From: an uncultured Rickettsiales bacterium | GTDB taxonomy: Bacteria; Pseudomonadota; Alphaproteobacteria; Rickettsiales; SXRF01 | DNA length: 64,000 nucleotides | Assembly: GCA_964405685.1 (NCBI GenBank) | Contig: CAYOOP010000005.1 | Location: 108,713 to 172,712, forward strand | Reading direction: 5' to 3' | Part shown: piece after piece, positions 41,612-50,551 of the stretch | Layout of the letters: each line of letters begins with the position of its first letter | How positions within the stretch are numbered: position 1 is the first letter of the stretch | Position numbers and translations under genes: made by a program | The notes under the pieces: model-generated | Told to the model about the DNA's origin: nothing | What the model saw: the letters and a program-made list of their open reading frames with translations, nothing else | Database searches by the model: none

Positions 41612-44254
41612 TTACTGCCCGACAATCCGCTTAGCGACGAACGCTTCGAGAGAGGCGGTGTCGGTGCGGACCGTGTAGGCTTCGATGGGGCCAGCGATGT
41701 TGAGGCCGAAGGTGGACATGGTGGTGGCGCCCAGTTGCGGGAATTGGAATTTGGCGTCGAGGTTCATTTTCCAGGGGAGCAGTTCGATCTGCCCGCCAAT
41801 GACGCCCGTGGTTTGCGTGGTGGTGGTAAGGCCGAGGCCGGGGGTTTTGAAGATGGCTTGTTGCAGGTTGATGTTGCCGTCGACGCTGAATTCGCTGGTG
41901 CCGCTGCTTACCATTTGTTCTACACCTTTGACCACATCTCCCGTGTTGCGGGCGGCTTGCGTGGTTTCCAAAATGCCTTGCAGATTAAAGCCGGGCACAC
42001 GCACGCCGCGCGCGGTGACGGTAGCGCGCATATTCGCTTGCTTCAACCATTCGAGGAAATTGATGCCCGAGGTGGTGACGTTACCACTGACGTTTGCCCG
42101 GCCGGTGATGGAAGAAGGCAGCGCGAAGCGTTGCAGCAGATCTTCCACATGGATGTTGTAGAGGGCAAAATTGCATGAAAGCGCCGGTACTTTTCCACCG
42201 GTGATATTGCCGTTCATCGATATTTGGCCACCTAATATGTTGAACCCAAAATTCTGGATTTGCAGTTGCTGGTCTTTCAGCGTCGCTTTGGCTTTGAAAA
42301 AGCCGTAGGTGGTATCCTCCAGTTTGAAGTCAGCAATGTTGATATCAAATTCGCCATCCAGCAAATCTGTCCATGAGAAATCAAACAACTCTTCAGAAAA
42401 ACGCGAGGTTTTATTGGTGGGGTCGATCCATGGTCTGGAAGGTTTGTCGCCCTCCAGCTTGGTATAGGCCGAATCAAAAAACGGGGCGGCGAGAATAAGT
42501 GTAAGCCGTGGGCGTGGACCGCTGGCATTCAGTGTCACCGTGCTGCGCAGCGTGCCTTCGGGGAGCCCCAGTTCAATATTGCTGAGTGAAAGCTCGCCGG
42601 GCTTGGCAATGATGTGCATATTGCCGATGGTGCCGGTGCGGTCTAAGAAGGTAAAGCCGTCTAACCAGACGTTTAAATCAATAATGCCGGTGAGCCGTTT
42701 AAGCCACTGGAACTCGTTGCCGTTTAGGAGCGAAAGCTTGTAGGTGCCGCCGGCGCTTTCCTGCTTCGCTTTGCGCCAGGCGTTGCGGAAGTAATCAAGA
42801 TTAACGCCCTTGATGCGGATTTCTGCTTCCGAGCGGGTGATGTTTTCAAAATAGGTGGAAAGGCCGCCGGTGAAATTAATATCCCCCAGTTTGACTGCCG
42901 CTTCTGATACGCGGAATTGTTCGTTTGACCAGAAAATATTACTCGCCAAGCTATATTCGCCCAGGTTTTCATCAGGCAGGCTAGTGGCGGTGGGTTCAAA
43001 GCTGGCCAAAAATGCTTTTAAGCTTTTACCTTCGAGCAATCCTTTGCCTTCGATGCGTGCACCGAGTGCGCGGTCGGTGTAACGGCCGTTGAAGGTGAAC
43101 ACAGAACCGTCTTCGGTGGCCACGCTGATATCGCGCAGTGTGATATCAATACCGCCATATTCGACATTGGCGCTCGCGTCTTTCAAGGTGCGTGTACCAA
43201 GCGTTAATGCGGTGGTTTTAGCGAGGACGATGATGTCATAATCCTCTTTCACCACCTCGTTGCTATCCGCCGCTGGGCGGGAGGCTTTGAGTAGGTTGGC
43301 AACAATCGGCGTAAATGGTGTAAGGTTAAACGTATCCGCCTGTACATCCACCGCCAGGGTCGGCAAACCGCGTAGTGCCCCGTAGGCGGAAATCCTGCCT
43401 TTAGCGCCGCCAATGGTTGCATCCGCGCTGTGAAGCCACAGTTCACCATTGCCTAAGGTCGCATCGCCTTTCACGTCGAGGGTTTGGGTAGGATTGCTTT
43501 TTTCAGGTTGTTTTGCGGATTCGACTTTGGGAATCCAGGTGCTTAAATTTGTGTGTAATGAGAATGTACCAGGTGTTTCGCCACCTGCTGCGGGTAGGGT
43601 ACCGCTGAATTCGGCGTGGCTACCGTCTTTGGTTGCGAGAGTGATCGTAAGCGGTTGCCCGGCGTCTAGCCCGCTGGTGATGTTGAGGGTAGCCTCTCGC
43701 TCTGAGGTGCGGCCTTGGAGGGAGAGATTGAGCGATGAAGCTTCACATTTCAACACGCCGTTGACGGTCTCTACCCGCGTGATTGCATCGCTGCCGGCGC
43801 GTTGCAGGTTCACCTCGCCGTTTTGAACTGTAAATACCCCCGGCATGGCGCAGAGTTGCTTGAGAGCGGGTTGCAACGAAGTATCAGCTTCAACGAGGTT
43901 AAACGTCGGACTGCCCAGTACAATCGCCGGGTGCTTGCCACCGGAAAACAGCCCAGCCCAGCCGAGATTGAGTTTCCCGGTGCGGGCGGAGAGGATGGGT
44001 TTGTCATCCCCAATCGTAATATCACTCAGTGCCACATGCGGTGAGGGGAAGGGGGAAATACCGCCCTGAATAGTCAATTTCACAGGCACGCCGCTCGCCT
44101 TGGAAAGTGACTCGATCAGGCTGGTTTGCAAATGCTCTTTATTCACAAACATCGGTGCGACAAAAGCCGCAACCAGCAATAGCGCCAGCGCGCCTAACAC
44201 CGGCTTCACATAAGGAATTTTGGGCGGGAATTTCAATTGTTTGAGCGGGGGCAT
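41612..44254 (-). CDS. AsmA-family outer-membrane biogenesis protein
   Basis: 880 aa with a single N-terminal TM helix, then a long beta-rich repetitive periplasmic region of AsmA-like composition. Confidence 0.6.
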   Translation of the reverse strand: MPPLKQLKFPPKIPYVKPVLGALALLLVAAFVAPMFVNKEHLQTSLIESLSKASGVPVKLTIQGGISPFPSPHVALSDITIGDDKPILSARTGKLNLGWAGLFSGGKHPAIVLGSPTFNLVEADTSLQPALKQLCAMPGVFTVQNGEVNLQRAGSDAITRVETVNGVLKCEASSLNLSLQGRTSEREATLNITSGLDAGQPLTITLATKDGSHAEFSGTLPAAGGETPGTFSLHTNLSTWIPKVESAKQPEKSNPTQTLDVKGDATLGNGELWLHSADATIGGAKGRISAYGALRGLPTLAVDVQADTFNLTPFTPIVANLLKASRPAADSNEVVKEDYDIIVLAKTTALTLGTRTLKDASANVEYGGIDITLRDISVATEDGSVFTFNGRYTDRALGARIEGKGLLEGKSLKAFLASFEPTATSLPDENLGEYSLASNIFWSNEQFRVSEAAVKLGDINFTGGLSTYFENITRSEAEIRIKGVNLDYFRNAWRKAKQESAGGTYKLSLLNGNEFQWLKRLTGIIDLNVWLDGFTFLDRTGTIGNMHIIAKPGELSLSNIELGLPEGTLRSTVTLNASGPRPRLTLILAAPFFDSAYTKLEGDKPSRPWIDPTNKTSRFSEELFDFSWTDLLDGEFDINIADFKLEDTTYGFFKAKATLKDQQLQIQNFGFNILGGQISMNGNITGGKVPALSCNFALYNIHVEDLLQRFALPSSITGRANVSGNVTTSGINFLEWLKQANMRATVTARGVRVPGFNLQGILETTQAARNTGDVVKGVEQMVSSGTSEFSVDGNINLQQAIFKTPGLGLTTTTQTTGVIGGQIELLPWKMNLDAKFQFPQLGATTMSTFGLNIAGPIEAYTVRTDTASLEAFVAKRIVGQ

Positions 44255-44302
44255 ACTCCATAAAGTTACACCAAAACCCCATCTGATGACAAGGTGTTGT
44301 AT

Positions 44303-44318
44303 CTAAAGATATCTTTAG
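44303..44318. promoter_or_regulatory. Perfect 16-bp palindrome in the asmA-nuoG divergent intergenic region
   Basis: CTAAAGATATCTTTAG, 64 nt upstream of the nuoG ATG. Confidence 0.3.
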
Positions 44319-44381
44319 GTTGCATCCGCGTGTGCGCATGGTAAAACGCTTTCGTCTTACTTTGATAGAGCGTTTATATTT

Positions 44382-46439
44382 ATGCCAAAACTGACGATTG
44401 ACGGACACGAAATAGAAGTTGAACCCGGTACGGTGATTATTCAAGCTGCCGAGCAGCTCGGAATCGAAATTCCCCGGTTTTGTTACCATGATCGCCTGGC
44501 CATTGCCGGCAATTGCCGCATGTGCTTGGTGGAAGTTTCGCCAGGCCCGCCGAAGCCGCAGGCCAGTTGCGCGCTGCCGTGCGCGGACAATATGGTAGTG
44601 AAAACCAATACCGAGATGGTGAAAAAAGCCCGTGAAGGGGTGATGGAGTTCTTGCTCATCAACCACCCGCTCGATTGCCCGATTTGCGACCAGGGCGGCG
44701 AGTGCGATTTGCAGGATCAAGCGATTGCGTATGGCAAAGGCAAGAGCCGCTATAAGGAAGAAAAGCGCTCGGTGCCGGATAAATACATGGGCCCGCTGGT
44801 GTCGACCTTCATGAACCGCTGCATTCATTGCACGCGGTGTGTGCGGTTTATTACGGATGTGGCCGGTGTGCCGGACTTGGGCGGCTTGGGCCGCGGCGAA
44901 CATATGGAAATTGGAACGTATGTTGAAAAAGCGATCGGCTCGGAACTTTCAGCCAATATTATTGACCTGTGTCCCGTGGGCGCGTTGACATCAAAGCCGT
45001 ATGCCTATGCGGCGCGGTCGTGGGAGCTCACGAAAACGGAAACGGTGGATGTGCTGGATGCCGTCGGCTGCAATATCCGCGTGGATTCGCGAGGGTCGGC
45101 GGTGATGCGTGTGCTGCCGCGTGTGCATGAAGACATCAACGAGGAATGGATTTCCGATAAGTCGCGCTATGCGTGCGATGGCTTAAAAACACAGCGGCTG
45201 GACCGTCCATACGTTCGTGGTGCCGATGGCAAGCTCAAAGCGGCAAGCTGGGAGCAAGCATTGCAAACGGTTGTGCATAAAATGAAACAGCTGGAGCCTT
45301 CTGAGATTGCCGCTATAGCGGGCAATCTTGCGTGCACGGAGAGCATGTTTGCACTGAAACAACTCATGGACAGTATCGAATCGCACAATCTCGATTGTCG
45401 TCAGGATGGCGCGAAATTGCCGACGGCCAAGCGTGGCGATTATTTATTTAATGGTACGATTGCGGGCATTGAAGACGCCGATACGATTGTGCTGATTGGC
45501 GCGAACCCGCGCAAAGAGGCCTCGCTTGTGAATGCACGCATTCGGAAGAGCTGGAAAAATGGTGGTTTGAAAGAGGTGTTCGTCATCGGCCCGGCGACGG
45601 ATTTGACCTATCCGTCTACTTCGCTCGGGAGCGACCCACGCATATTGAAAGATCTGGTGGCCGGCAAGCACGATGCATTTAAAACATTGAGTGCGGCGAA
45701 AAAACCGATGGTGATACTTGGGACTGCAGCGCTTGCGCGTGAAGATGGCGCGGCGATTTACGAAACCGCGAAGCAGTTGGCAGAAAAAATAAATGCGAGC
45801 TTTAATGTGCTGCACCACGCGGCGGCGCGGGTAGGGGGCCTGGATGTTGGCTTTGTGCCGGGGGCTAGCGGCAAGGACATGAGCGGCATTGTTGAGGCTT
45901 CCAAATCCGGCGACATTAAAATGGTCTATTTGCTTGGTGTCGACGAAATCGACATGTCGCATTTCGGCAAAGCGTTTGTGGTGTACCAGGGCCATCACGG
46001 TGACATTGGCGCCCATCGCGCGGATGTGATTTTGCCCGGCGCGGCCTATACGGAAAAAGATGCTACTTACGTGAACATGGAAGGGAGAGCGCAACGCGCA
46101 GTCCGCGCGGTGTTCGCTCCGGGTGAAGCGAAGGAAGACTGGGCGATTATCCGTGCCATCTCCGGTGCACTGGGCGCGCAATTGCCGTATGACACACTCG
46201 CGCAACTGCGCGAAGTGATGATCGCGGCGCATCCGCATTTAGGCCAGATTGATACGGTTGTTCTGGCGGATGTTTCGCCAGCCAACCCGCCAAAACCCGG
46301 GCAGGGTGCGATTCTGGCGAAGGCGCTGGAGGAGTGGACTGCGAATTTTTATAGGACCGATCCGATTTCGCGTGCGTCCAAAACCATGGCCGAGTGTACC
46401 AAGCAAATCGGCGAATTTTTGCAAAAAGAGGCGGCGTAA
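44382..46439 (+). CDS. nuoG: NADH-quinone oxidoreductase subunit G
   Basis: 685 aa with an N-terminal 2Fe-2S motif and 4Fe-4S cysteine motifs (CYHDRLAIAGNCRMC, HPLDCPICDQGGEC, CIHCTRC). Confidence 0.9.
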   Translation: MPKLTIDGHEIEVEPGTVIIQAAEQLGIEIPRFCYHDRLAIAGNCRMCLVEVSPGPPKPQASCALPCADNMVVKTNTEMVKKAREGVMEFLLINHPLDCPICDQGGECDLQDQAIAYGKGKSRYKEEKRSVPDKYMGPLVSTFMNRCIHCTRCVRFITDVAGVPDLGGLGRGEHMEIGTYVEKAIGSELSANIIDLCPVGALTSKPYAYAARSWELTKTETVDVLDAVGCNIRVDSRGSAVMRVLPRVHEDINEEWISDKSRYACDGLKTQRLDRPYVRGADGKLKAASWEQALQTVVHKMKQLEPSEIAAIAGNLACTESMFALKQLMDSIESHNLDCRQDGAKLPTAKRGDYLFNGTIAGIEDADTIVLIGANPRKEASLVNARIRKSWKNGGLKEVFVIGPATDLTYPSTSLGSDPRILKDLVAGKHDAFKTLSAAKKPMVILGTAALAREDGAAIYETAKQLAEKINASFNVLHHAAARVGGLDVGFVPGASGKDMSGIVEASKSGDIKMVYLLGVDEIDMSHFGKAFVVYQGHHGDIGAHRADVILPGAAYTEKDATYVNMEGRAQRAVRAVFAPGEAKEDWAIIRAISGALGAQLPYDTLAQLREVMIAAHPHLGQIDTVVLADVSPANPPKPGQGAILAKALEEWTANFYRTDPISRASKTMAECTKQIGEFLQKEAA

Positions 46440-46440
46440 T

Positions 46441-47397
46441 ATGCGTATCGGTGCGTTTGCTCTTACGGTTCTTGCATCGTCCACCGCCTATGCCGCTAGC
46501 TGGCCCAGTGCGCTGACCTATAAAGGCCAGCCGATTACCCGCTGTTTGGAAGCGTTGCCGATGGAGGAGGCGTCGCGCAGTAAGCCGCTGGATCTCGCGG
46601 CGTGTTCTGCTCCCGATCCGCAAATACAGGACAGCGAACCCAATCAAGATTTAATTTCGCAAGGCTTCATTGGTCGCAGCTACACCACGGGCGAGGGCGC
46701 AAATCCCGCCTATGGTTACTACAAGGTGCTTGGCCCTTATCGCGGTGGCTATTTGGTGTATGGTTTGTGGAGCGGCGGCGGCTTGGCCCAATTCTCTTCG
46801 CTCGATGTCATCAAACGCAAAGGCGACACCATTTGGGTCGAGCGCGAAATCGCGAGTGGCGACCGTTGCAATAATGGCATCACTGAAGCGTGGCTCGAGC
46901 GTGGCAAGTTATTTTATAAGGTCAACTTCACACCCTACGATATTATTGTACACGCAGATATTCCCGTGACGGTGAAAACCTCCGACGATTTGGAAAGCAC
47001 GCCAACCAGCTGTTTTGCGACCGCTACATTTGCGCAGTCGCGCGACAATCAGCCTGATTTTTATGTCATGGCGCTGAATCAGGAAAACCCTGATGCGCTA
47101 ATTTCCGATGTTGAGTGGACGCGAAACTACCGTTATCAGACCTGTTTTAACACTCTGTTCTTAGATGCGTTGCAGTCGGGCTCGGTTTCGTTTGATAAAA
47201 AGGCGCTCACCGCCTGGGTCAAAGGGTTTTATGAAACCTGCGTGAATCAAAAAGTGATTGATGAAAAACCGTTTGAAGTCAACCCCCCAGAGCCAACGCC
47301 ACAGTCCATTGAAGTAAAGCCAATGGACGCGCCGGTCGAAGTGCCGATGATTTATTCGGAGCCCGATAGCGGCGTGGATCAAGGAGACGGCCAATGA
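46441..47397 (+). CDS. Secreted hypothetical protein (318 aa) embedded between nuoG and nuoH
   Basis: Track ORF 46249..47397 trimmed to the ATG 1 nt after the nuoG stop. Signal peptide [18 protein letters not shown], several Cys, a Pro/Glu-rich tail. The stop overlaps the nuoH start. Confidence 0.6.
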
Positions 47398-48392
47398 TGG
47401 AGTTGATCAACATCCTCATGCCGCTGCTGATTATTGTCGGCAAAATCCTGCTGGTTGTCGTACCACTACTGATTTGCGTGGCGATGCTCACCTATTTCGA
47501 GCGCAAAGTCATCGCGGCGATGCAGCTGCGCAAAGGTCCGAATATGATTGGTCCGTTTGGGTTGCTGCAAGCATTTGCCGATGGCGCGAAATTGTTTCTG
47601 AAAGAGACGATTATTCCGTCTGAGTCCAACAAAGTGATTTTTTTCCTTGCGCCCATGCTTACGTTTTCGCTGGCGCTGCTTGGCTGGGCGGTGATTCCGA
47701 TTTCAGAGTATTTCGTGATCGCCGATATCAACGTCGGTATTCTTTATCTCTTTGCGATTTCTTCGCTCGGCGTCTACGGCATCATCATGGCCGGGTGGGC
47801 GAGCAATTCGAAATACGCGTTTTTGGGTGCGATTCGCTCCTCCGCGCAGATGGTTTCTTATGAAGTGTCGATCGGCTTTGTCATCGTCACGGTGCTGATG
47901 GTCGTCGGCTCACTCAATCTAAACGACATCGTGCACGCGCAGGCAGACGGTTGGTTTGCCTTCTCGCCGCTCTTTCCGATGTTCATCGTCTTCTTCATTT
48001 CCGCGCTTGCTGAAACCAACCGCCATCCATTTGATCTGCCGGAGGCCGAAGGTGAATTGGTTGCCGGTTACAACGTTGAATATTCATCCATGACCTTCGC
48101 GCTGTTTTTCCTCGGTGAATACGCGAATATGATTTTGATGTCGGGCATGGTGACCATCCTCTTCCTCGGTGGTTGGCTGCCCCCGCACCACGCGCTTGCC
48201 TTTATTCCTGGCGGTATTTGGTTTGCGCTAAAAGTCTCCGTCTGCCTCTTCGTTTTCATCTGGGCACGCGCCACCTTGCCGCGCTATCGCTACGATCAAC
48301 TCATGCGCCTGGGCTGGAAGATCTTCCTGCCGTTTTCGCTGCTGTGGGTGGTGGTGATTGCCGCTTGGGTCGTCTTTTTTCAGGGGCATTAA
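47394..48392 (+). CDS. nuoH: NADH-quinone oxidoreductase subunit H
   Basis: 332 aa with [17 protein letters not shown] and [18 protein letters not shown] motifs. Confidence 0.9.
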
Positions 48393-49013
48393 GTGATCGA
48401 GCACGCTATGACATGGCTGGTCGAATTGGTGCATAGCTTGGGCTATGTGGGGCTGTTTATTCTCACGGCGATGGAAAGTATGTTCTTTCCAATTCCGTCC
48501 GAAACTACGATGATTCCTGCCGGTTACCTCGTGCATCAGGGTGAGTGGAACATGGCGGTGGTGTGGATCATCGGCGTTACGGGTACGATTGTGGGTTCGC
48601 TTCTGAATTACTGGATTGCGTACATCATGGGCCGTCCATTTCTGGAACGCTACGGCAAATATATGTTCTTCGATCAGGCGCGCATGGCGCAGATGGAAGA
48701 GTATTTTAAAGTGCACGGAGAGATTTCGATTTTCACTTCACGTTTTATTCCCGGCGTGCGCCATGTGATTTCGTTCCCTGCGGGCCTTGCGAAAATGGAT
48801 CTGAAGCGCTTCACGTTTTTTACTGCTTTGGGCGGCGGCATGTGGATGACGGTGTTGATGTTCGTCGGCTATCAAATCGGTGACAATAAAGACTTGGTTC
48901 ACAAGTATATGCCCTATATAACACTCGCGTGTATCATCGGTGTGGCGGCGCTTATCACCTATTACGTCTGGCGCCACCGCAGCAAAAAGAAGGTCATGAA
49001 TGGCACTGTTTAA
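48393..49013 (+). CDS. dedA: DedA-family membrane protein embedded between nuoH and nuoI
   Basis: 206 aa with [19 protein letters not shown] and [16 protein letters not shown] DedA signatures. Starts directly after the nuoH stop and overlaps nuoI by 14 nt. Confidence 0.75.
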
Positions 49014-49488
49014 ACGTACCGCGCGCGCATTTTTGTTGACCGAGCTGGTGGTCGGCTTTGGCATCACGCTTAAATACATGTTCAAAAAACCGGTGACGAT
49101 CAACTATCCGTACGAAAAAGGCCCGCTTTCTCCGCGTTTCCGCGGTGAGCACGCGCTGCGTCGCTATCCCAACGGCGAAGAACGTTGCATCGCCTGCAAA
49201 CTCTGCGAGGCGATTTGCCCTGCGCAAGCGATCACCATCGAAGCCGAACCGCGCGAAGATGGCAGTCGCCGCACCACACGTTATGACATTGACATGACCA
49301 AGTGCATCTACTGCGGCCTGTGCCAGGAAGCTTGCCCGGTGGATGCGATCGTCGAAACCCCAAATTTTGAATTCGCAACGTTTACGCACGAAGAACTGCT
49401 CTACGACAAAAACAAACTCCTCGAAAACGGCGAACGCTGGGAACCGGCGATTGCTGCTAATTTGTTGAAAGATGCGGCGTACAGGTAA
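49000..49488 (+). CDS. nuoI: NADH-quinone oxidoreductase subunit I
   Basis: 162 aa with two ferredoxin motifs, [12 protein letters not shown] and [12 protein letters not shown]. Confidence 0.9.
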
Positions 49489-49496
49489 AACTCATA

Positions 49497-49935
49497 CCCT
49501 CTCCCGCGTGCGGGAGAGGGTTAGGGAGAGGGTGGATAGACAAGGAGAAACCATTGCGGGAAAACGCCAAACTTAAGCAAGCCAAGCAATTGCGGAAGCA
49601 GATGACGGAAGCTGAGAACTTGTTGTGGTATTATTTGCGCGCCGAAAGATTTTTGGGTTTCAAGTTTCGTCGCCAGGTGCCCATAGAAGGTTATGTTGCG
49701 GATTTTGCCTGTGTTCACCCTCCGGTCATTATCGAGGTTGATGGCGGTGGGCATACCACACAACAAGAAAAAGATAAAATACGCGATGAAGTCTTGCGAA
49801 AACGTGGCTATAAGGTATTACGTTTTTGGAATAATGAGGTATTCGAGAATATTGAAGGCGTGTCGATGACGATTAAAAATGCACTTGAGACTTCCCCTCT
49901 CCCCCACCCCTCTCCCGCACGCGGGCGAGGGGAGA
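49497..49935 (+). mobile_element. DUF559 gene bracketed by ~39-bp inverted repeats (family E), inserted between nuoI and nuoJ
   Basis: Left end CCCTCTCCCGCGTGCGGGAGAGGGTTAGGGAGAGGGTGG (49497-49535). Right end CCCCTCTCCCCCACCCCTCTCCCGCACGCGGGCGAGGGGAG (49893-49935) is approximately its reverse complement. Confidence 0.65.
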
Positions 49936-49952
49936 AGGTCTGCGTGTTATGA
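49554..49952 (+). CDS. DUF559 (Vsr-like endonuclease fold) domain protein
   Basis: 132 aa with a TTG start after AAGGAG. MTEAENLLWYYLR...FRRQVPIEGYVADFAC...IIEVDGGGH...VLRFWNNEV is the DUF559 pattern. The tail SPLPHPSPARGRGE is repeat-encoded, and the stop overlaps the nuoJ ATG. Confidence 0.75.
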   Translation: MRENAKLKQAKQLRKQMTEAENLLWYYLRAERFLGFKFRRQVPIEGYVADFACVHPPVIIEVDGGGHTTQQEKDKIRDEVLRKRGYKVLRFWNNEVFENIEGVSMTIKNALETSPLPHPSPARGRGEKVCVL

Positions 49953-50551
49953 CCGAACTCATTCCCACCCTCTTATTCTACATCTTCGCAGCCGGGGTGC
50001 TCGGTTCGGCGGTGATGGTGGTTGCGGCGCGGAACCCCGTGCACTGCGTATTGTTTTTGATTTTCTCGTTCTTTAACGCCGCCGGTTTATTTGTGCTGCT
50101 TGGCGCCGAGTATTTGGCGATGACGCTGGTGATTGTCTATGTTGGCGCAGTGGCCGTGTTGTTCCTGTTCGTGGTGATGATGCTGAATATTGACCTTGCA
50201 CAGGTCCGCCAAGGATTTTTAAAGCATATGAGTGTGGGTATGACGATTGCGGGAACGCTGGCCTTTGAACTTTTGCTCGTGGTCTACCTCTCGTTGCTTA
50301 ACCCCGGCATACTCGCCGCAGCCCGCAACCCAACTTATTCCGAGCGTGACCTCACCAACACCCATGCGCTGGGCCAGGTGATCTATACGGATTATTTGCT
50401 CGCGTTCCAAATGTCCGGCCTCGTGCTGCTGGTTGCCATGATCGGCGCTATTGTGCTGACGCTTCGCCACCGCCCCGGCGTGCGCAAACAAGTGATTTCC
50501 AAGCAGCTCGCGCGCAAGCGCGAAGATGCAATTGAGATTGTGAGGCACTAA
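49949..50551 (+). CDS. nuoJ: NADH-quinone oxidoreductase subunit J
   Basis: 200 aa. TM protein with [32 protein letters not shown]. Confidence 0.85.

Follow-up and report, generated by a model that had tools for sequence, protein, structure and literature searches.

A cysteine-rich exported protein of an unannotated family, probably a periplasmic passenger, is encoded between nuoG and nuoH in an uncultured alphaproteobacterial clade

A 318-aa open reading frame between nuoG and nuoH in the window (the whole 64-kb stretch of DNA analyzed here), referred to as X, was found to encode a member of an unannotated protein family. On balance, X is probably a periplasmic passenger of this family that is expressed by relay translational coupling. 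The preliminary description had left two readings side by side, a complex I accessory or assembly factor and a passenger on a strong operon. Of these, the passenger is favored, since most family members are not linked to nuo genes, X evolves faster than the Nuo proteins, and the operons carry many other variable inserts. The same observations weaken the accessory factor, which is kept alive by the occurrence of the family at two different nuo positions. All in all, the data are best explained if X does not count among the obligatory parts of complex I. X would have been inserted into a formerly overlapping nuoG/nuoH junction in a narrow uncultured alphaproteobacterial clade and kept there as a passenger.

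The reading frame runs from the ATG at 46441 to the TGA at 47395-47397 and is preceded by the nuoG stop codon (TAA, 46437-46439) and a single spacer nucleotide (46440). Its end lies inside the nuoH start, i.e. the nuoH ATG (47394-47396) shares bases with the X stop and is directly followed by a second ATG (ATGATGG). Both junctions had been described in this way before and were recovered unchanged. The NuoG protein encoded upstream of X has 685 aa and carries all NuoG Pfam domains. No copy of nuoB-F was found anywhere within the 64-kb window, which indicates that the operon was split before nuoG in the clade carrying X. In a consensus scan of positions 44000-50000, the sole promoter-like match on the + strand was located upstream of nuoG, and neither a + strand promoter match nor a convincing terminator adjoined X. 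The coordinates of all features are listed in Table 1.

Table 1. Features of gene X and its neighborhood (positions in the window)
Feature	Position	Strand	Basis
Sigma-70-like promoter match upstream of nuoG	44286..44315	+	Consensus scan; pattern match only
nuoG, heading the split nuoG-N unit	44382..46439	+	Pfam domains
Shine-Dalgarno-like AAGAGG within the nuoG 3' end, 9 nt ahead of the X ATG	46426..46431	+	Sequence reading
Gene X including its stop; precursor (318 aa) of an exported protein rich in Cys	46441..47397	+	ORF, translation, homologs
Signal peptide of X, residues 1-18 (putative cleavage after A18)	46441..46494	+	Hydrophobicity and inspection for AXA
Conserved family domain, residues 19-270, six conserved Cys	46495..47250	+	Alignments, AF2 model, HMMER matches over ~10-270
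Signature SGDRCNNG (consensus GGDRCNGG), residues 139-146, beta-hairpin turn	46855..46878	+	Alignments: G140, D141, R142, and C143 invariant; N144 and G146 nearly so
Clade-specific Pro/Glu/Asp-rich tail, residues 271-318, predicted disordered	47251..47394	+	Alignment; pLDDT 43-68
Shine-Dalgarno-like AAGGAG within the X 3' end, 7 nt ahead of the nuoH ATG	47381..47386	+	Sequence reading
nuoH, start overlapping the X stop (ATGA)	47394..48392	+	PF00146, E 1.8e-130
DedA/VTT-family membrane protein gene, second stable insert of the clade's operon	48393..49013	+	PF09335, E 3.4e-24

As suggested by the spacing of the genes and the lack of internal signals, X would be transcribed from the nuoG promoter within a unit nuoG-X-nuoH-dedA-nuoI-...-nuoN. 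Ribosomes ending nuoG at the UAA would reinitiate at the X AUG, 1 nt further on, aided by AAGAGG, and those ending X at the UGA would restart at the overlapping nuoH AUG, aided by AAGGAG. From this geometry, which is directly seen, we infer that the insert relays the ancestral coupling of nuoG to nuoH rather than breaking it. X is tolerated in an essential operon probably because the coupling chain is preserved. If X is a passenger, it shows how an essential, translationally coupled operon can accommodate an insert that passes the coupling on at either junction.

Comparison of nuo operons revealed X between nuoG and nuoH in the window and in loci L001, L005, L006, and L057 (the Logan contigs L003 and L004 are identical to the window), and this placement is restricted to a single small clade of uncultured alphaproteobacteria. 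L057, a 16-kb contig encoding an X protein 48% identical to that of the window, has the same layout, with a divergent asmA-like gene followed by nuoG-(GIY-YIG)-X-nuoH-dedA-nuoI-...-nuoN-birA, except that the GIY-YIG gene is not present in the window. In L001, L006, and L057, the ORF directly preceding X is of the GIY-YIG type. X is tightly coupled to nuoH in four of the five nuoG/H-type loci for which the downstream gene is known; in L001, a DUF2442 ORF lies between the two. The spacer between nuoI and nuoJ holds a DUF559 gene in the window and a 64-aa ORF together with a GIY-YIG gene in L057, which carries a further 153-aa ORF between nuoJ and nuoK. X and dedA are stable across the clade, and the small endonuclease-like inserts turn over.

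We also detected a second placement of the family, nuoC-GNAT-X-nuoD, in a related group (L007, L008, L013, and L066). The nearest NuoG outside the X-bearing clade, at 70% identity, belongs to the operons L092 and L093, which are contiguous from nuoB to nuoN. Here, nuoG overlaps nuoH directly, and a family-profile search of both operons yielded no X; judging from these outgroups, direct overlap of nuoG and nuoH was the ancestral state. The slot between GNAT and nuoD, occupied by X in the four loci of the second placement, contains DUF4258-type genes in L092 and L093. NuoD of L008, L013, and L066 is 83-86% identical to that of L092 (L007 holds only a 44-residue NuoD fragment). The inserts in L092 and L093 comprise Rce1-like, GNAT, DUF4258, DUF4160, DUF2442, DUF3298/PdaC-like, and Sel1 genes as well as several unknowns, and a number of them carry signal peptides or lipoboxes; across the compared operons, passengers also include GIY-YIG and DUF559 genes. 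NuoH proteins of X-bearing and X-less operons are 82-83% identical and differ by a shorter N-terminus, with no loop insertions or deletions between them. Initially, the case for X had been made to depend on conservation of the ORF in relatives with the same operon. This held for the four or five relatives with a split nuoG-N unit (L001, L005, L006/L057) but not for the next closest nuo operons (L092 and L093), so that presence of X varies among related operons and does not follow the operon across relatives.

A word-indexed search with X retrieved five relatives, three of them at 47-51% and two at 29-34% identity (best homolog: E 7e-95). The full extent of the family became evident in an exhaustive HMMER search covering 1.84 billion cluster representatives, which yielded 447 representatives at E ≤ 1e-3 and 273 at E ≤ 1e-10. 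Members mostly have ~260-290 aa (typically about 270), match the query over residues ~10-270, and are typically composed of a signal peptide and a ~250-aa domain with six conserved cysteines and the GGDRCNGG motif. In an alignment of 64 sequences, C35, C143, C191, C267, F118, and G140 were invariant, and C55, C235, Y94, G113/G114/G116, D141, R142, N144, G146, T164, D167, L184, A188, Q233, F236, and F263 were nearly so. The motifs of the family are GGGxGxF, GGDRCNGG, TPxD, DLExxAxxC, and YQxCFN. X carries the residues of all invariant and near-invariant columns and was matched by the family profile with an E-value of 1.3e-85.

The family is unannotated and has no Pfam or NCBIfam model. Scans of X and 64 family members against these two collections gave nothing credible, a PDB sequence-profile search gave one insignificant match (E 0.69), and no publication on the motif turned up in a search of the literature. 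Where sources name the proteins at all, they are called 'hypothetical protein'. The earlier remark that no domain is recognizable in X thus extends to 63 of its relatives, all of them without a Pfam, NCBIfam, or PDB match.

The Sec signal claimed for the first 18 residues of X agreed with a heuristic check of Sec and SPase I features. It begins with M-R, providing one basic residue, continues with a stretch of 12 residues and ends in AYA-A; the Kyte-Doolittle mean of the hydrophobic core reached 2.34 over a 10-mer. Across the family, an N-terminal hydrophobic segment was present in 59 of 64 members and a lipobox-like site in 5 of 64, which indicates that the family is exported. X has six cysteines (35, 55, 143, 191, 235, and 267), in line with the paired cysteines noted previously. 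As all six are conserved, they suggest three disulfides; from their positions in the secondary structure of the predicted model, the pairs are likely C35-C55, C143-C191, and C235-C267. The X precursor would thus be exported by the Sec pathway, cleaved after A18, and oxidized in the periplasm to form the three disulfides, and the mature product would be a soluble periplasmic protein performing the general job of the family.

The Pro/Glu-rich C-terminal tail, which had also been pointed out, comprises 48 residues with 9 P, 6 E, and 5 D. According to the alignment, it is confined to the nuoG/H-type members and missing from the rest of the family, including the nuoC/D-type proteins. A motif at the end of the tail, PP..(E/D)..VEVP....PD(D/S)G..Q, is conserved among the five nuoG/H-type proteins, with P277, P283, P294, P308, D309, G311, and Q314 invariant in all five. 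Such a short conserved motif following a disordered linker could be a docking peptide, and it now makes the strongest case for a partnership specific to the clade.

The AF2 model of X, based on a 40-sequence alignment, reached a mean pLDDT of 85.2 and a pTM of 0.77, with pLDDT values >90 across most of residues 21-270 and low values in the signal peptide and the tail. The predicted fold opens with short helices at the N terminus, proceeds with a long antiparallel beta-meander (strands within residues 77-212), and closes with a bundle of helices at the C terminus (217-268). For the gammaproteobacterial member P0157, a second model showed the same order of elements (pLDDT 89.6, pTM 0.84). Foldseek searches of both models against PDB and BFVD returned no match with E ≤ 1e-3 and none with a TM score above ~0.34. 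Weak matches that recurred for both models were Osh4, nitrobindin, SRPBCC/Bet v 1-like proteins, PKS dehydratases, and lipocalin-like cyclases; at best, they hint at curved antiparallel-sheet ligand binders. Invariant polar residues and glycines are located at hairpin turns (D141, R142, N144, T164, D167, and Q233), which suggests a binding site. The most plausible, though weakly inferred, role of the family is binding of a ligand or partner on a face to which the Gly-rich hairpin turns (GGGxGxF, GGDRCNGG), TPxD, and YQxCFN contribute.

To survey the distribution of the family, genomes (one per GTDB species) were scanned by pattern plus tblastn, and a 16-sequence alignment was used. The scan returned 47 loci from Legionella/Fluoribacter (7), Coxiellaceae (2), Micavibrio (about 10), Pseudobdellovibrionaceae (2), a Rickettsiales MAG, unclassified Gammaproteobacteria, Rhizomicrobium, Caulobacter, Sphingomonas azotifigens, Novispirillum, and Haematospirillum, counts which are biased by the use of one peptide pattern. 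Two contigs with family members were binned as Saccharibacteria. A metagenome scan added 34 further loci. Judging from these sequences, the family appears to be spread across Pseudomonadota, including Bdellovibrio-like bacteria and Rickettsiales-like MAGs. A tblastn search of X against 72,556 plasmids and 50,697 phage records found no homolog.

Linkage to nuo genes was judged by searching all loci with the Nuo proteins of the window. Only two of the 47 genome loci (L008 and L013) and one of the 34 metagenome loci (L066) were linked; thus, <10% of the examined family loci lie inside nuo operons. Elsewhere, the X gene directly follows ftsH (L012 and L036), comes after pyrD (L025), gap (L038), the gene for an enoyl-CoA hydratase (L017), miaB (L037), pepN (L055), or hicB (L034), is found near an RlpA-like gene (L056), or lies beside ftsZ (Micavibrio-type loci and L094). 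In many cases, the gene is carried along behind a housekeeping gene. P0007 (37% identity), the closest relative outside the clade of the window, is encoded at L094 beside ftsZ, not in a nuo operon, and the three unknown ORFs neighboring it are not its paralogs. Clustering of neighbors across family loci revealed no family-wide partner gene. Since most loci are unrelated to nuo and their contexts are heterogeneous, the general role of these proteins is not linked to complex I.

The X proteins of the window and L057 are 48% identical, compared with 84% for NuoG, 90% for NuoH, 96% for NuoI, and 83-93% for NuoJ-N; among the non-Nuo proteins, identity was 71% for DedA, 55% for the AsmA-like protein, and 87% for BirA. 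In its divergence, X resembles an envelope protein, unlike the Nuo subunits. The GC3 of X (0.586) is near that of the operon (0.62-0.70), in contrast to that of the DUF559 gene (0.50), which suggests that X is an old resident. In a neighbor-joining tree with 100 bootstraps, the nuoG/H clade was supported by 90%, the grouping of nuoC/D-type with nuoG/H-type proteins by 10%, and deeper nodes were not resolved. The tree would be compatible with a single capture of X as well as with independent captures at the two nuo placements, and does not tell one from the other.

Some observations run counter to a passenger. Occurrence at two nuo junctions (nuoG/H in five sequences and GNAT/nuoD in L007, L008, L013, and L066) is more than random placement predicts, and X and dedA are stable, GC3 is that of an old resident, and the tail motif is restricted to the clade. 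Also, no alternative function of X has positive support. A lineage-specific role of X in complex I, as an accessory subunit or assembly factor that docks on the periplasmic face near NuoH, perhaps via its C-terminal tail motif, is unlikely but deserves to be considered; in function, X would then be comparable to disulfide-bonded mitochondrial subunits of the intermembrane space such as NDUFA8. This role would agree with the two distinct nuo junctions in related alphaproteobacteria, with the tight coupling to nuoH in four of five nuoG/H-type loci, with the tail motif, with the retention of X over a divergence to 48% identity while other inserts changed, and with a product that is predicted to be periplasmic and disulfide-bonded; moreover, NDUFA8 is added with ND1 in mitochondria (PMC8762328). 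Against these points stand the >90% of family loci unrelated to nuo, the nearest outgroup operons without X, the far faster evolution of X compared with the Nuo proteins, and the unchanged NuoH loops of X-bearing genomes. Furthermore, all family-wide invariant residues are kept in X, which suggests that the generic family function is kept as well, the structure of Paracoccus complex I reports no periplasmic accessory subunit, CX9C motifs are missing from X, and the sole CHCH-like hint in Pfam has an E-value of 0.15. In its most specific form, X would be the first periplasmic-side accessory protein of bacterial complex I, an exported and disulfide-bonded protein that was taken over from a general periplasmic family, is synthesized in concert with NuoH, and attaches to the P-side of the membrane arm via the clade-specific C-terminal motif, which we regard as rather improbable. 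If true, complex I of bacteria would gain its first periplasmic accessory component, parallel to the mitochondrial intermembrane-space subunits, with a bearing on the origin of the mitochondrial P-side subunits.

Alternatively, the family could be a secreted or periplasmic factor of host-associated and predatory bacteria (e.g. for defense against, or interaction with, enzymes of host or prey), the location in nuo operons being irrelevant. Although genome matches are rich in Legionella/Fluoribacter, Coxiellaceae, Micavibrio, Pseudobdellovibrionaceae, and a Rickettsiales MAG, and universal signal peptides, some lipoprotein forms, and fast evolution would fit, this is quite improbable: the taxon counts are biased by scanning with a single peptide pattern, the family also occurs in free-living Caulobacter, Sphingomonas azotifigens, Rhizomicrobium, and Novispirillum, and no similarity to a known effector, inhibitor, or immunity family was found in Pfam, NCBIfam, PDB, or with Foldseek. 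The GIY-YIG ORF directly upstream of X in L001, L006, and L057, and the DUF559 and GIY-YIG endonuclease-like ORFs in other spacers of the same operons, would be expected if X were cargo of a mobile cassette that invades conserved operons, driven by the adjacent homing-endonuclease-like gene. Yet the window has X without GIY-YIG, L057 has GIY-YIG without X between nuoI and nuoJ, plasmid and phage records lack X homologs, the GC3 of X is near-native, unlike that of DUF559, and most family members have no endonuclease neighbor, which makes a cassette highly improbable. Finally, an open frame arising by chance or a wrong gene call has a probability close to nil. The lack of annotation for X is the sole point in favor, set against hundreds of homologs with conserved cysteines and motifs, a confident structure prediction, a good Shine-Dalgarno sequence and start codon, and a position kept in relatives. 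With this candidate ruled out by homology, X is evidently a genuine gene.

Regarding accessory proteins of complex I, the subunits NDUFS4, NDUFS6, NDUFA12, and CI-PIMT of Paracoccus denitrificans are located on the hydrophilic domain or heel (10.1101/2024.05.14.594153; PMC8115037), and on the periplasmic side the former study describes only loops of core subunits and bound Ca2+ (10.1101/2024.05.14.594153). These subunits are accessory proteins of an alphaproteobacterial complex I, but not on its periplasmic face. X has a signal peptide and shows no similarity to them; it had no Pfam or NCBIfam match to these four families. Nor did it match any of the 14 core families NuoA-N above threshold in Pfam, in a search in which the flanking genes strongly matched their own families (PF00384 etc., PF00146). 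Mitochondrial complex I has disulfide-bonded subunits with CX9C motifs on the P side, of which NDUFA8 joins the ND1 module (PMC8762328). X resembles these CHCH subunits of the intermembrane space (NDUFA8, NDUFS5, NDUFB7, and NDUFB10) in its predicted disulfides and predicted P-side location, and its last two helices are probably stapled by C235-C267. However, X lacks a twin CX9C motif, CX9C spacing being absent among its six cysteines, and its fold is a beta-meander with helices of ~250 aa. UPF0203, which we take to be a CHCH-like family, scored E 0.15 and 12.7 bits with X in Pfam (cut-off 27).

ORFs of unknown function within alphaproteobacterial nuo/nqo operons have long been known from Paracoccus, Rhodobacter, and Rhodovulum, and URF4 of Paracoccus is presumably located at the nuoG/nuoH junction. 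X is similar to these URFs in being a same-strand ORF that lies among nuo genes, has no relationship to the 14 core subunits, and varies from relative to relative. It differs from them in lacking any sequence relationship, in encoding a soluble, exported, Cys-rich protein instead of a membrane helix hairpin or methyltransferase, and in its location at the nuoG/nuoH junction, with a family that is mostly found outside nuo operons. One of the URFs, urf1 between nuoE and nuoF in Rhodovulum sulfidophilum, was identified as LH1-RC protein-3h in a 2026 structure (PMC13066640), i.e. as a component of the photocomplex and not as part of complex I, and thereby sets a direct precedent for an ORF of a nuo operon whose product acts elsewhere.

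URFs inserted into nuo operons are of a known kind; the X family itself is undescribed. If X is a passenger, the finding defines a sizeable family described in no database (~450 clusters at 50% identity) and marks the nuo operons of a large group of uncultured alphaproteobacteria as hotspots of insertion, for exported proteins in particular. The family includes cultured species of Legionella, Sphingomonas, and Novispirillum, and with its confident predicted structure, for which Foldseek found no counterpart in PDB, it lends itself well to a new family entry and to studies of structure and function. By its signal peptide, six cysteines, and the motifs GGGxGxF, GGDRCNGG, TPxD, and YQxCFN, X fully belongs to this family, which it shares with Legionella, Micavibrio, and others. 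X and its four or five closest relatives are set apart from the rest by the added Pro/acidic C-terminal tail and the location in a nuo operon.

The nuo operon of the window is split before nuoG (region 41612-46439, which includes nuoG itself), and no homologues of nuoB-F were found within the whole 64-kb window. The layout around nuoG, with a divergent AsmA-like gene and a promoter-like site, is common to the window and L057, a relative carrying X (the exported six-cysteine protein encoded between nuoG and nuoH) at the same junction. The nearest outgroup operons, L092 and L093, which lack X, instead have a contiguous nuoB-N.

A DedA/VTT-family membrane protein gene is, besides X, a second stable, clade-specific insert of the window's nuo operon. 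It starts with GTG directly abutting the nuoH stop, overlaps nuoI by 14 nt, and is kept in L057 (71% identity to the window copy); it is absent from the nuo operons of L092 and L093. Further downstream, the slot between nuoI and nuoJ is occupied by a DUF559 ORF (Vsr-like endonuclease) in the window but by a GIY-YIG ORF in L057, which suggests that homing-endonuclease-like genes turn over at this position. In the window, the GC3 of the DUF559 ORF is 0.50, compared with 0.62-0.70 for the nuo genes. The N-terminus of NuoH (window 47394-47420) is 8-9 residues shorter in X-bearing operons than in the X-less L092 and L093, probably as a by-product of X insertion redefining the nuoH start.

Exported proteins are a recurrent passenger class in nuo operons of the L008/L092/L093 type, where further inserts begin with signal peptides or lipoboxes. 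Among them are an uncharacterised exported-type protein of 198-233 aa after nuoD (30-48% identity across three loci) and a DUF3298/PdaC-like insert with an N-terminal export signal that follows nuoE; nuoI is followed by a Sel1 lipoprotein gene. Directly 3′ of nuoC, a GNAT acetyltransferase gene is found in L092, L093 and the four loci with the order nuoC-GNAT-X-nuoD (L007, L008, L013 and L066), conserved at 41-78% identity throughout this alphaproteobacterial group. The slot between it and nuoD holds either X or small genes of the DUF4258, DUF4160 or DUF2442 type.

Coordinates of features in and outside the nuo operons
Feature	Locus	Position	Strand	Location
AsmA-like gene	window	41612-44254	-	divergent, 5′ of nuoG
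Promoter-like site	window	44286-44315		5′ of nuoG
DedA/VTT gene	window	48393-49013	+	between nuoH and nuoI
G+C-rich palindrome, 26 nt	window	49496-49521		precedes DUF559 ORF
DUF559 ORF	window	49554-49952		between nuoI and nuoJ
Signal-peptide/lipobox ORFs	L008	2779-3480; 4182-4631		nuo operon
Signal-peptide/lipobox ORFs	L092	5183-5779; 6511-7308; 13596-14225		nuo operon
Signal-peptide/lipobox ORFs	L093	4655-5284; 5905-6726; 8010-8432		nuo operon
ftsH-linked X-family locus	L012	4069-6825		
ftsH-linked X-family locus	L036	34-1594		

X-family members were also detected on two contigs binned as Candidatus Saccharibacteria (L033 and L038), an assignment that may reflect mis-binning; these bacteria are not known to have complex I or a typical periplasm. 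In two MAGs, one from Pseudobdellovibrionaceae and one from Micavibrio (L012 and L036), the X-family gene lies immediately 3′ of ftsH. Other members adjoin ftsZ/lpxC in further Micavibrio-type loci (L016, L022, L027 and L029), and the member in L094 is one of four ORFs inserted between ftsA and ftsZ.
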